The notes under the pieces: model-generated
What the model was told of the DNA's origin: nothing
What the model saw: the letters and a program-made list of their open reading frames with translations, nothing else
Databases searched by the model: none
Part shown: positions 30,476-48,262 of the stretch, piece after piece
Layout of the letters: each line of letters opens with the position of its first letter
Position numbering within the stretch: the stretch's first letter is position 1
Position numbers and translations under genes: made by a program
Sequence record: MT446407.1
Source: Escherichia virus TH34
Length of the DNA: 64,000 nt
Strand: one strand, 5' to 3'

Positions 30476-31102
30476 GTGAGCCTGTTAAGAGATTTTCAGC
30501 ATTATTATTGCGGAACATGGATTGCCCAACGTGCAGAACGAGGGATTAATTTACCTCTTTATGTACTCAACGTGAACCAAGCAAACCGCTTTGGAGAAGA
30601 TGACTTCTCTCACGAAGCAGAAATGGCCTTAACTTTTGAAGTTGAACGCTGGTCTAAGAACGCCGAAGGGCAGTTTGAACGACAGGTTGTTCAGGGCATT
30701 CCTGTGTTTGATCAAAGCCTTATTCTGGAATCTCCAGATGTGGGATACTTACAACACGGCAACAACATGGTAAGCTGGACTCATATCAACCCTGTTCGTC
30801 AGCGAGCTAAGGGTCTGATGGGGAACAAATTACGTGGTGCACCTCCTTCAATGGGTCGTTCGATTCCGGGAGAGCTGGTGTATAATCTGTTTAATCCTGA
30901 CTTCGAAGGTCTGGTTACTCGCTTCATCTACATCAACCCTGTCGATGGTAAAGTTTATTACAAAGGGGCACTTGTAGGTCAAGTTGATCTTTCTGCTGGT
31001 TACGGCGACAATGGTCGTCAATCTTTAAATCTTCTGGAGAAGTTCAAGCATATTTCTTCAGATCTGTCATCATATAATGTAGAGTTGGTGGAAACGTTAT
31101 GA
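30476..31102 (+). CDS. hypothetical protein (cluster member)
   Basis: 208-aa ORF; stop overlaps the next start. Confidence 0.5.
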   Translation: MSLLRDFQHYYCGTWIAQRAERGINLPLYVLNVNQANRFGEDDFSHEAEMALTFEVERWSKNAEGQFERQVVQGIPVFDQSLILESPDVGYLQHGNNMVSWTHINPVRQRAKGLMGNKLRGAPPSMGRSIPGELVYNLFNPDFEGLVTRFIYINPVDGKVYYKGALVGQVDLSAGYGDNGRQSLNLLEKFKHISSDLSSYNVELVETL

Positions 31103-32199
31103 CAACCGTAGCACAAGTTTTTGGATACCGTAATGCTCGTCTGGCTGAGCCGCACCCAAGCATCGCTTTTCAGTGTGGTATTGGCATCGAGCTGGAAGTT
31201 GAAGGAACCTCTGAAATTGATGCAGACCTTTGGGTTTGTACTGAAGATGGTTCACTTCGTGATGGCTGTGAGATGGTTTGTGCACGGCCTTACAACGGTG
31301 TAGAATTGCTTAGTGCTATTAACAATCTGAGTGAAGCAGTACAAGACTCTGAAGCTGAAGGGACTTGGCGCTGCTCTACTCACGTTCATATGGATATGCG
31401 TGACGCTGATAGTAACATCCTGAAGAAAGTAATTCTTGGATGGACGTTCTATGAAAAGATGATGTTCAAATGTTCTGGATACCATCGCTATCGTAGCAAC
31501 TTCTGTCCTGCCTTTGCTGTTGTTCAAGCACAGGTAATGAATGCTTCCGCAGCGTTCAACCGAGATGGTGAAGCCTTCTTCAATACTCTTGTTAATAGCT
31601 GGGACAAGTACACCTCCCTTAACCTATTACCTCTGGCTCAGTTTGGTTCTGTTGAATTTCGTATCTCAGAGCCAAAGTGGAAGAAAAGCCAACTCCTTAA
31701 TCTGGTCAACCGCTTCTTAGTTCTCAAGAAACTGGCTGTTGAGTATGCAGATTTGGATAATGAAGCATATGTTGAGAAACTGAATGAGCTACGCTTCGCT
31801 CCTATGATTCAGTATCTGCCTCTGGACTACACACCTAATGATGATGACCTGACTGGTGGTTATCGTTTGGCTCGTGATATTCTGTTCTGTCGTGAACATT
31901 CTGTTACTCTGGTTGGTCGTGTTCGTGTACAGCAGACCGGACCTGATGGTGAAATCCTTATCAACTTGCGTGATATGGGTGACTTCTACGGTTTCTTGGG
32001 ATATGTACGTGGTAATGCCAACTCTATTTATGAAGAGATCATGACCTATTACACCCCTCAGATTGAAAACACTCGAATCGCAACGGTTCGTGAAATTCGT
32101 CACATGTTTGCTCTGATGCGTGAATCAGGTAGCAGTGATGATAACGTCACTGGTTACATTCCAGACCATCTGGAAATGCAATTAGAACGACTGCTGTAA
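31099..32199 (+). CDS. amidoligase-like protein, paralog 2
   Basis: 366 aa; GIGIELEVEG (E-x-E), EDGSLRDGCEMV, STHVHMD, VEFRISEP motifs consistent with glutamine-synthetase-like amidoligases. Confidence 0.5.
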   Translation: MTTVAQVFGYRNARLAEPHPSIAFQCGIGIELEVEGTSEIDADLWVCTEDGSLRDGCEMVCARPYNGVELLSAINNLSEAVQDSEAEGTWRCSTHVHMDMRDADSNILKKVILGWTFYEKMMFKCSGYHRYRSNFCPAFAVVQAQVMNASAAFNRDGEAFFNTLVNSWDKYTSLNLLPLAQFGSVEFRISEPKWKKSQLLNLVNRFLVLKKLAVEYADLDNEAYVEKLNELRFAPMIQYLPLDYTPNDDDLTGGYRLARDILFCREHSVTLVGRVRVQQTGPDGEILINLRDMGDFYGFLGYVRGNANSIYEEIMTYYTPQIENTRIATVREIRHMFALMRESGSSDDNVTGYIPDHLEMQLERLL

Positions 32200-32276
32200 C
32201 ACAATGGGCGCTCTGATAAAGGGCGCATTTAAAGGTTAATTAGATGAAAGGGTTTACCCTTCAGGTGGATTAGAAA

Positions 32277-34310
32277 ATTTGTGGTATCGTATTAGCTGGG
32301 GGCAACATGACCTCCACAGACTTAGACGTATTCAACCAGCTTCTGTATGCTGGAGTCTTCCGTGGTCAGCACTCAACTGGTGTGTTCGGTCAGCGTAAAG
32401 GTGATGAAAAAGTATTTTCTTATAAAGAAGCACTTCCTTCCTATGCCTTCATGCTCCAGACAGGGTACACGAATCTTACTAAGGGGCTTACGAACTATGT
32501 AGTTCCTCCATCGTGGATTGTTGGTCATAGCCGACATGCCACACGTGGTGCGGTCAATGCTCGAAATGCTCACCCATTCTCTCATGGTGACATTACTCTG
32601 GTTCATAATGGTACACTGTTAGATCAGGAACTGTTACCAGATCATAAGAATTTCGAAGTTGATAGCGAAAACATCTGTCATTCAATCAACACCATCGGTG
32701 CAGCAGAGACTATCCAGAAGTTGGATGGTGCGTTCACTTTAATCTGGCATGACGCCAAAGACAATACTCTGCATATCATTCGTAACGATGAACGTCCTTT
32801 CCATCTGGCCCGTTGTGGTCTAGATTGGTTTGGTGCTTCTGAAGAAGATATGTTGATGTGGATTCTTAATCGTTCCAAGTCACACAAGAACCGTATCAAT
32901 GATCACTTTGAGTGTAAAGTGGGAACTGAATACATCTTTGATTTGTCTGGCAACCGTATGACTCTGACTCAAGAGGTGGAGCACAAGCTTCCGGTTTTTA
33001 CGGTAACGAGTCGCTGGGGCGGCTATTACTCGAACTCTTCTCTGTATCAGAACCAACAGACAAACAAATCAAGCAGCAGCACAAGCGACATTTACGGAAA
33101 CAAAGACGACAAGCCCGGCGTGACAAGCGGAGACATTCGTCGTCGTAAAGCGATTGAAGATCAGAATAAACTGGCTGCCGATCGTGGTCTTCCGTATCGT
33201 CGTGACGGTCGTGTGGATATCATTCCTCATGAGTTCCACGCTTATAACAACACTGACCGTGGTAAGATGGTTGGTTATATTTATGATGATGCTGCTCAAG
33301 AGTATGTTGAGGGTGATGTTCATAATGTAGCCAAGAGTGAATACTTGAAGGCTCTCGAAAACCCAAAGGTAGTGTATCGCGGGACAGTTGCTTGTATCTC
33401 CGAAGTGGACAGTATGATTCGCCTCGTACTCACTTCAGGGCTGTTTGTTGATGCTACCGATAAGGAGCCTCAAAGCACTACCGCTGATTTTGATGATGAT
33501 ATCCCTTTTGATTTAGAAGACTCCTTCATCACTAAGAATGGTGTGGAAGTCACCCGTAAGTTCTGGGAATCACATTCTCATGGTGATTGTGGCGGTTGTG
33601 ACAAGCATATTGAATGGAAAGATGCTAAGAAAGCTGTGTTCGCTTACCAAGCATATTGGCATCCGGCCTGTTTCGAAGCATTGTCCAAACCGTCTGAAGA
33701 AGATGAAGACATTCCTTTGGGTGTCTGTGCTGTATGTGGCAATGTTAAAACTGATTTCGAGTTTGATAACGAAATGAGTAAACTTCGTGGTGAAGATATT
33801 TGTTATGTCTGTGCCAAAGAGATCAAAGACAAAGTGACTAACACTACATTGTCTGAAGGTTACATTTGGACTAAAGCAGTTGACACAACCAACCCACGTC
33901 GCCCTGAAGTAGCAGTTCGTGTTGATCAGCGTATGCTTAGCCGGATGATTGTAATGGTCAGCTCAGCTAAACGTTCTGGTGACATTGAATTGTCTGATGT
34001 TCCAAATTCTTATTTGGAAAAACGTGGTGGTGATACCTATGCCATCTCTGTTTATGGTCCAAAGAATGCCCCAAAGGAGGTGCCCGCTGAGAAAGCGGAA
34101 ACATTTCCAGAAAAGCAAACAACTCTCCGAAAAACAGTTGTCAGTTACGACGGACAACGAACAGCTGAGTTCACAAAAGCCCTCTGGACTTCAATTGGGT
34201 TTTGTGCGGTCTGTTATAAACAAATTCCGTGGCGTGATGCAGAAATTTGCTCACTGAACAAAGAAAACAGGGTGATCTGTAATTCAGATTACTGTAAAGG
34301 TAAACATTAA
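32277..34310 (+). CDS. class-II glutamine amidotransferase (Ntn-hydrolase)-like protein with C-terminal zinc-ribbon region
   Basis: GAT-II motifs RGQHSTG, LVHNGTL, DGAFTLIWHD, IRNDERPFHL; the canonical N-terminal C-G-I-V is encoded at 32280 just upstream of the first ATG (32307), preceded by ATT (32277) and SD AGGTGG (32263-32268); C-terminal half has several C-x2-C pairs. Confidence 0.7.
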   Translation: MCGIVLAGGNMTSTDLDVFNQLLYAGVFRGQHSTGVFGQRKGDEKVFSYKEALPSYAFMLQTGYTNLTKGLTNYVVPPSWIVGHSRHATRGAVNARNAHPFSHGDITLVHNGTLLDQELLPDHKNFEVDSENICHSINTIGAAETIQKLDGAFTLIWHDAKDNTLHIIRNDERPFHLARCGLDWFGASEEDMLMWILNRSKSHKNRINDHFECKVGTEYIFDLSGNRMTLTQEVEHKLPVFTVTSRWGGYYSNSSLYQNQQTNKSSSSTSDIYGNKDDKPGVTSGDIRRRKAIEDQNKLAADRGLPYRRDGRVDIIPHEFHAYNNTDRGKMVGYIYDDAAQEYVEGDVHNVAKSEYLKALENPKVVYRGTVACISEVDSMIRLVLTSGLFVDATDKEPQSTTADFDDDIPFDLEDSFITKNGVEVTRKFWESHSHGDCGGCDKHIEWKDAKKAVFAYQAYWHPACFEALSKPSEEDEDIPLGVCAVCGNVKTDFEFDNEMSKLRGEDICYVCAKEIKDKVTNTTLSEGYIWTKAVDTTNPRRPEVAVRVDQRMLSRMIVMVSSAKRSGDIELSDVPNSYLEKRGGDTYAISVYGPKNAPKEVPAEKAETFPEKQTTLRKTVVSYDGQRTAEFTKALWTSIGFCAVCYKQIPWRDAEICSLNKENRVICNSDYCKGKH

Positions 34311-47767: not shown

Positions 47768-48262
47768 ATGATTCCGATTTCCGACTACTTGTCATACGAC
47801 CTGGATACTGTTTTATTGATTTTTACCGAATCTAGCTCTAAAGGTAAGAAATGGAATAAATCACATCCGGGAAAAGTGGCAGGGGCTGTTGATGAAAAAG
47901 GGTATATCAGAGTTTACTTTGAAGAGAGGAGATGGAAAGCTCACAGACTTATAGCTTCTGTGCTCATACCTAACCCTGAAAATAAACCACAAATTAACCA
48001 CATCAATGGTAACAAAAGTGATAATAGGTTAGAGAACCTAGAGTGGGTCACTGGTCATGAAAATATGCAACATGCTTTTTCAACAGGTCTTAATGTTGGT
48101 AAAGAGAGGGATGCTAATGGAATGACTAAAATCAACACATTGGATGTGGAGAAGATCAAGAGTTTATATGTTAAAGGCTCTACCACTCATGGAACAAGAG
48201 CACTAGGTAAGATGTTTGGCGTAAGTCACACAGCTATCCGACATGCTTTAAGCTCAAGTTAA
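47768..48262 (+). CDS. HNH homing endonuclease with AP2-like DNA-binding region
   Basis: 164 aa; NHINGNKSDNRLENLEWVTGHENMQH. Confidence 0.65.
   Translation: MIPISDYLSYDLDTVLLIFTESSSKGKKWNKSHPGKVAGAVDEKGYIRVYFEERRWKAHRLIASVLIPNPENKPQINHINGNKSDNRLENLEWVTGHENMQHAFSTGLNVGKERDANGMTKINTLDVEKIKSLYVKGSTTHGTRALGKMFGVSHTAIRHALSSS

Follow-up and report, generated by a model that had tools for sequence, protein, structure and literature searches.

Class-II glutamine amidotransferases (GAT-II) such as GlmS, E. coli PurF and AsnB carry an N-terminal cysteine nucleophile, Cys1, that is exposed by removal of the initiator methionine, and in the propeptide type represented by B. subtilis PurF and GltB it is uncovered after translation of a continuous open reading frame (ORF) that runs from a canonical start. 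Among genes starting at AUU, the closest described case is infC of E. coli K-12: at the thrS-infC junction (CAAUUGGAGGAAUAAGGU-AUU) positions -13..-8 are taken by the Shine-Dalgarno (SD) sequence GGAGGA and positions -6..-4 by UAA, the stop codon of thrS. Translation of infC is limited by discrimination by initiation factor 3 (IF3), with reinitiation and de novo initiation contributing about equal shares, and the junction gives four times less expression than its AUG version (PMC3592434). An AUU start is also described for E. coli pcnB (Binns & Masters 2002, as cited in PMC3592434). Here we analyse a 64,000-nt stretch of Escherichia virus TH34 (MT446407.1; this whole stretch is called the window hereafter), in which a GAT-II gene encodes its catalytic cysteine upstream of its first ATG. 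From the sequence we consider it very probable that this gene starts at AUU 32277, by de novo initiation on a dedicated, hairpin-assisted region.

The phage region shares with infC its AUU start, the -13..-8 register of the SD and the position of an upstream stop codon at -6..-4, with a 3-nt gap. It differs in its compact hairpin next to the SD, for which infC has no counterpart, in that the upstream ORF is the full-length thrS in E. coli but a nine-codon ORF in the phage, and in that infC is autoregulated by its own product whereas the phage product is an enzyme for which IF3 sensitivity is a prediction. The likeness to pcnB is that of a natural gene kept at low expression by an AUU start; pcnB is a single chromosomal gene and we know of no conserved structured leader or family-wide recurrence in its case. 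GlmS, E. coli PurF and AsnB have the same fold and the same Cys1 nucleophile but AUG starts, while the phage gene and about 20% of its phage family have AUU or AUC. The propeptide enzymes resemble the phage protein in that Cys1 has to be uncovered after translation; however, the continuous ORF that leads through the propeptide to the cysteine in that type is interrupted here by an in-frame UAG at 32271, and homologues begin Met-Cys without a propeptide.

Downstream of the TAG that closes the nine-codon mini-ORF (MKGFTLQVD), which is in the GAT frame throughout, the window reads AAA (32274), ATT (32277), TGT (32280, Cys) and GGT ATC GTA TTA GCT GGG GGC AAC, and the first ATG of the GAT ORF follows nine codons 3′ of the TGT; 8 nt separate the ATT from an AGGTGG motif at 32263-32268. 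Every one of these coordinates, as given in the first-pass annotation, was correct, and its central claim of a catalytic cysteine upstream of the first ATG was borne out, since homologues with canonical starts place their ATG directly before the same cysteine. Such ATG-TGT starts are found in phages of Proteus, Cronobacter, Vibrio and Pseudoalteromonas, with the ATG aligned to the ATT of the window. The N-terminus Cys-Gly-(Ile/Leu)-Val has no exception among the aligned homologues, Cys1-Gly2 is invariant in three alignments (A1, A2, A4) of diverse homologues, and at the coding level 165 of 166 distinct loci have Cys-Gly immediately behind their start codon. A family profile compared with the PDB matches the amidotransferase domains of GlmS, PurF and AsnB, its position 1 (Cys) corresponding to residue 1 of E. 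coli PurF.

The first-pass annotation had allowed for homologues that align from 32307 and lack the cysteine, and the contrary was seen: the ATG at 32307 is itself not conserved (CTG in phiEco32, CTC in KBNP1711). As Cys1 is essential and lies upstream of this ATG, the protein cannot start at 32307, and with Cys1 conserved and the homologues' ATG preceding it, such a start is excluded for the family. The in-frame UAG at -6..-4 likewise excludes a canonical in-frame start further upstream. Of the options proposed in the first-pass annotation, AUU initiation is thus strongly favoured, with ATT or ATC at this exact position in 33 of the 166 distinct homologue loci. In its favour, too, the SU10 orthologue of the GAT protein was seen by mass spectrometry with nine peptides (PMC4281155), which demonstrates production of the orthologue and not the position of its N-terminus. 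The same region holds a feature that had escaped that annotation, a hairpin at 32248-32261.

The conservation seen among relatives goes beyond chance. A megablast search with 31900-33400 returned coliphages TH42 and Bas88 at 98.7% identity and phiEco32 at ~76%, and the window is therefore DNA of a phiEco32-like podophage (Gordonclarkvirinae). Across seven phages, 56 nt (32229-32284) are invariant in all columns, whereas the flanking genes vary at most third codon positions, and the 71-nt leader is kept at no less than 95% identity in 96 of 98 phage records. In the Aeromonas phage BUCT695 (Grimontviridae), whose coding DNA can no longer be aligned with the window and whose GAT domain is 57% identical, the leader retains 85.7% identity over 84 nt (88.6% over the 71-nt query). 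Its hairpin differs in the loop only (UUAA), and its mini-ORF is retained as MKGLTLQAD without an SD in front. A neighbour-joining tree places BUCT695 beside an ATG-starting Cronobacter phage, with two ATG-starting contigs between it and the phiEco32 clade; therefore the leader was either exchanged or repeatedly lost. The same leader type is found on a 624-bp contig of a Herbiconiux assembly (L271), where the mini-ORF ATG has become CTG and hairpin, SD, UAG and AUU are kept, the stem having gained an A-U pair (AAGGGA-UUUA-UCCCUU). Another locus (L153) presents AGGAGGAUUAGAAA-AUU-UGUGG behind an unrelated 7-bp hairpin. We also observed the leader AGGAGGAUAG plus four bases in IMG/VR contig 3300042270_000005 (L152), once with UUG before Cys1, which shows that a spacer of the SD-UAG type does not strictly require AUU. 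Coordinates of the initiation region and its neighbours are collected in Table 1.

Table 1. Features of the GAT-II start region of Escherichia virus TH34; positions are those of the window, negative numbers count back from the AUU.
Feature	Position	Strand	Remarks
Amidoligase gene, upstream in the same cluster	31099..32199	+	Pfam Amidoligase_2; 'amidoligase enzyme' in Bas88 and SU7
7-bp stem-loop just 3′ of the amidoligase stop codon	32208..32226	+	Predicted fold; without a real U-tract
Invariant 56-nt block, whole translation-initiation module	32229..32284	+	Conserved across Gordonclarkvirinae
Mini-ORF MKGFTLQVD, stop TAG	32244..32273	+	In frame with GAT; contains hairpin and SD
Hairpin AAGGG-UUUA-CCCUU, 5 bp	32248..32261	+	3′ end at -16 from AUU, one base 5′ of SD; inside the mini-ORF
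Shine-Dalgarno AGGUGGA	32263..32269	+	GGUGGA at -13..-8 relative to AUU
In-frame UAG	32271..32273	+	At -6..-4; terminates the mini-ORF
AUU, inferred initiation codon of the GAT gene	32277..32279	+	Aligned with homologues' ATG; CDS (coding sequence) start in phiEco32 EU330206 and Bas88
UGU, Cys1, N-terminal nucleophile	32280..32282	+	C1-G2 invariant in three alignments; profile position 1 is E. coli PurF residue 1
First ATG, internal Met10	32307..32309	+	Equivalent position CTG in phiEco32, CTC in KBNP1711
Full GAT gene, 677 codons and stop	32277..34310	+	N-terminal class-II GAT domain, Cys-rich C-terminal part

Three scans of IMG/VR yielded 166 distinct viral loci with a tblastn match beginning at Cys1. 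The codon before Cys1 is ATG in 119 of them, ATT in 24, ATC in nine, TTG in 11 and GTG in two; at the last locus (L025) a TGC directly precedes the matched Cys codon and an ATG lies one codon further upstream. ATT or ATC starts thus account for about one in five distinct loci, a share that depends on query-biased samples and differs by clade, the extremes being 1 of 37 new loci and roughly a third. These starters are scattered over the protein tree beside ATG sisters, and for 26 of the 32 checked the upstream frame holds a stop but no canonical start. The gene ahead of them mostly terminates 16-44 nt from the start, against 2-8 nt in ATG loci; a structured spacer thus takes the place of tight coupling.

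Near-cognate starts go together with a hairpin that abuts the SD. Counting compact hairpins with dG <= -4 kcal/mol and a 3′ end 9-22 nt before the start codon, so that individual calls hinge on the energy threshold, we found one in 23 of 33 ATT/ATC loci and in 15 of 132 canonical-start loci, the rate in shuffled ATT/ATC leaders being 12% (Fisher's exact test for hairpin vs start codon, 6e-11, with loci that are not phylogenetically independent). By distinct leader clusters the association persists, with hairpins in 19 of 27 AUU/AUC clusters vs 3 of 78 ATG clusters. The stems of the 19 distinct hairpins are unrelated in sequence, with a mean arm-base identity of 27%, and consist of 128 Watson-Crick and seven G-U pairs, as tabulated by script; the MAFFT alignment merely right-anchored 16 leaders and left their hairpins in differing registers. 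Most frequently, a hairpin ending at -14..-16 precedes GGAGGAUAG, four further bases and the AUU. Within IMG/VR this exact type of pattern with AUU occurs before eight GAT genes, all eight with the hairpin, and a search for it with ATG found none.

Bases closer to the start codon are biased as well. AUU/AUC leaders have G at -9 in 93%, A at -8 in 70% and U at -7 in 78%; the full GAU at -9..-7 is present in 18 of 27 AUU/AUC clusters vs 2 of 78 ATG clusters (p = 9e-12), and A at -3 in 24 of 27 vs 38 of 78. This GAU (32268-32270 in the window, also in L030, L036, L041, L153 and others) is exactly complementary to AUC and, if wobble pairing is allowed, to AUU; predictions gave no stable pairing for it. 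A search of the window for other genes with a hairpin, an SD and AUU or AUC (AUY) in this arrangement matched only the GAT gene, the T-arm of a tRNA and a site inside a coding region.

Pseudomonas phages show that leaders of this kind can change hands. Phages O4, K4, Ty and IME180 carry AACCUC-GUU-GAGGUU, then CGGAGGAUAAAAUU, then AUC, and FBPa8, a close relative of O4, has the O4-type leader with AUU. From the Cys codon onward PA11 and TC6 are 92% identical to the O4-type phages, yet they start at UUG behind a different leader, and homology between the two types ends right at the Cys codon. PPAT, a more distant relative with about 79% nucleotide identity in the first ~100 nt of the coding sequence, starts at AUG. 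The ancestral initiation region, which drives GAT directly in PPAT and PA11, carries in O4 and FBPa8 a 64-codon Cys-rich ORF (472-663 in O4, L264; 471-662 in FBPa8, L265), and the GAT gene downstream of it has the hairpin-SD-AUY unit. The leader therefore acts like a unit that can be exchanged, the break falling at the Cys codon. The third base of the start codon drifts between U and C in these leaders, and G was not found. AUU/AUC leaders of this type are present in at least three phage groups (Gordonclarkvirinae, Grimontviridae and Zobellviridae) and in ~20% of phage GAT-II genes. We tentatively entertain the idea, without giving it the better chance, that the hairpin-SD-AUU/AUC leader is a distinct exchangeable initiation module for near-cognate starts, possibly IF3-responsive, in which AUU or AUC becomes usable through a helix next to an SD in the infC register, together with the conserved GAU at -9..-7 and an A at -3.

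How initiation might proceed can be sketched from these elements. The 30S subunit would bind the SD AGGUGGA, whose register (-13..-8) is that of E. coli infC, and the 5-bp hairpin on its 5′ side would keep the landing pad single-stranded and set its 5′ boundary; it may also stack on the SD helix, and would in either case act as an enhancer or positioner of the initiation region. In E. coli reporters, weak hairpins on the 5′ side of the initiation region raised expression, and a second-cistron SD with a hairpin just before it was not blocked by that hairpin (PMC3592434). Initiator tRNA would then pair with AUU and, this pairing being near-cognate, we propose that translation is low and expected to be sensitive to IF3 discrimination. 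Ribosomes ending the mini-ORF at the UAG 3 nt upstream may supply some reinitiation, as an auxiliary at most. Deformylase and methionine aminopeptidase would finally take off fMet and expose Cys1, Met-Cys being a good methionine aminopeptidase substrate. Low glutaminase dosage and complete removal of methionine are two possible reasons why this enzyme would use AUU or AUC.

Several observations weigh against initiation at AUU 32277 on a dedicated, hairpin-assisted region. The SD of the window has a central mismatch to GGAGG (AGGCGG in BUCT695), and 10 of the 33 AUU/AUC loci have no clear hairpin. By analogy with a reporter study in which AUU gave 6-8 times less expression than AUG (PMC3592434), the yield would be low. 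An out-of-frame UUG at 32279 overlaps AUU-UGU (A-UU-UG-U), opens a 39-codon ORF (32279-32398; LWYRISWGQHDL...) and, sharing the same SD, could draw initiating ribosomes away from AUU; any start of the form ATT-TGY brings such an overlap with it. Part of the link between hairpin and AUU/AUC could go back to a single ancestral leader cassette that recombination has spread, instead of many independent origins; a single cassette would still imply selection keeping the helix and a pyrimidine-ending start codon.

A different course of events, in which the mini-ORF is translated, the hairpin melted and the same ribosome restarts at AUU 3 nt past UAG, so that no GAT is made without the mini-ORF, has the thrS-infC geometry in its favour, where reinitiation yields roughly half of initiations (PMC3592434). 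The mini-ORF is kept in BUCT695, a 12-codon ORF at L062 encloses hairpin and SD in an analogous way, and the upstream ORF at L091, L092 and L098 is a real gene with its end at -7. An obligatory coupling of this kind is nevertheless unlikely. The Herbiconiux contig has CTG for the mini-ORF ATG and yet keeps hairpin, SD, UAG and AUU, the BUCT695 mini-ORF lacks an SD, the hairpin begins 1 nt past the mini-ORF ATG, inside the stretch that a 30S initiating there has to cover, and the mini-ORF is conserved as nucleotides, without synonymous variation. Most AUU/AUC lineages have no such ORF, their upstream genes ending at -16..-44, and of the termination-reinitiation suggested in the first-pass annotation what stands is a possible contribution in this geometry, not a general route. 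The same annotation had also considered read-through of the UAG, giving a 12-residue propeptide removed autocatalytically by the N-terminal nucleophile (Ntn) enzyme as in B. subtilis PurF. Some class-II amidotransferases do have a propeptide, and the mini-ORF is in frame with GAT in the window, BUCT695 and the Herbiconiux contig; against this, the peptide sequence is not conserved in the latter, the family otherwise begins Met-Cys without a propeptide, and other AUU/AUC lineages have in-frame stops variably placed from -3 to -57 and no in-frame start. We know of no efficient natural UAG read-through in E. coli, and consider this route very improbable.

Many gene callers place the start at ATG 32307, and the product (Met-Thr-Ser...) would then be a GAT-like domain without cysteine or catalytic activity. 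This reading has to recommend it that the ATG is the first canonical start and that SU7 is so annotated. It is hardly credible given that the ATG is missing in phiEco32 and KBNP1711, that the nine codons from Cys1 to its equivalent are conserved as protein across families, and that no SD precedes 32307 except GGGGG. The leader could also be mainly an element of transcription or RNA stability, a phage promoter with a protective hairpin at the 5′ terminus, the AUU link being secondary. Grimontviridae relatives (L005, L007, L016-L021) do carry TTTAAATGTAA ~20-25 nt upstream of the GAT start codon, where it follows a GC-rich hairpin; it resembles the phiEco32 gp36 promoter element tAATGTAtA, from which transcription starts 6-8 bp downstream, and a window transcript from there would begin near the mini-ORF ATG with the hairpin at its 5′ end. 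The window version is, however, degenerate (AAAGGTTAA; TTTAAAGGTTAAT, invariant, 32228-32240), a scan for sigma-70 promoters and intrinsic terminators gave nothing at the leader, and the gp36 promoter motif was not enriched and had no good match there. The GAT gene, moreover, lies in the early region, many metagenomic loci have the hairpin directly behind or inside the upstream ORF, and a stability role leaves the fixed distance to the start and the restriction to AUU/AUC unexplained; such a role as the leader's main function seems to us quite improbable.

Other structures were considered and set aside. In the window the minimum-free-energy fold pairs GGUUUACC with GGUGGAUU and would sequester the SD, and both BUCT695 substitutions break its pairing without compensation; a lower stem UUAAUU/GAUUAG is not retained in BUCT695. 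A loop-to-spacer pseudoknot, a prfB-like +1 frameshift and hopping over the UAG were rejected by inspection, having no matching codons or the wrong frame. An Rfam 15 scan of the leader returned chance-level matches only (E >= 0.6, scores far under thresholds). The separate stem-loop 3′ of the amidoligase gene stays paired in phiEco32 and KBNP1711 despite substitutions in both arms (GCGCUCU/AGGGCGC vs GUGCCUC/GGGGCAC). It was not called in the intrinsic-terminator scan and, lacking a U-tract, is atypical as a terminator; a role as attenuator or as stabiliser of an mRNA end is possible.

The N-terminal 230 residues of the GAT protein match Pfam GATase_6 with 55.2 bits (cutoff 27), and the protein also matches GATase_7 with 25.3 bits (cutoff 25). 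The upstream amidoligase matches Amidoligase_2 with 28.5 bits (cutoff 22), and a COOH-NH2 ligase and a RimK-like ATP-grasp gene belong to the same cluster, for which a role in peptide or cell-wall modification has been suggested (Iyer 2009, as cited in PMC10580990). Only five relatives of the GAT protein were found in bacterial and archaeal genomes (n=100,044), and the family is therefore essentially viral. After a Ser/Asn-rich linker, the C-terminal ~440 residues (33000-34310) present CxxC pairs, e.g., HGDCGGCDKH, GVCAVCGN...ICYVCAKE and GFCAVCYKQ; this part has no Pfam match, and the pairs may form zinc-ribbon-like modules. Elsewhere in the window, a tRNA-Arg gene (anticodon TCT) is located at 23393-23468, and a 164-aa ORF at 47768-48262 with an HNH-like motif (HINGNKSDNRLENLEW) probably encodes, judged by eye, a homing endonuclease.

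Public records treat the GAT start unevenly. The CDS begins at ATT in phiEco32 (EU330206, gp83) and Bas88, at the downstream ATG in SU7 (L002), at a downstream ATG in BUCT695 (L005), and at a GTG far downstream in the KBNP1711 RefSeq record (L003); in many records (SU7, KBNP1711 RefSeq, BUCT695, O4 and FBPa8) it starts from 10 to >40 codons past the cysteine, and the deposited proteins are without their nucleophile. Most of the 98 records with the leader have no feature annotated over it. The AUU start has accordingly been annotated since 2008 (phiEco32) and in some newer records, inconsistently, and a literature search that did not extend to the primary phiEco32 papers turned up no publication that treats the ATT starts of this gene family. 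New here are the invariant 56-nt block, the similar leader of the Aeromonas phage, the infC-register SD and stop, the family-wide link between AUU/AUC and the hairpin, and the Pseudomonas leader swap.

Function predictions and expression constructs derived from the Cys-less records would be wrong. In bacteria, few genes with a natural AUU start (E. coli infC and pcnB) have been investigated, and the dozens of AUU/AUC starts of this family, with their fixed SD register and covarying hairpin, form a natural data set on near-cognate start function. The family is also useful for asking whether phages keep the amount of an enzyme low or conditional through IF3-sensitive initiation.

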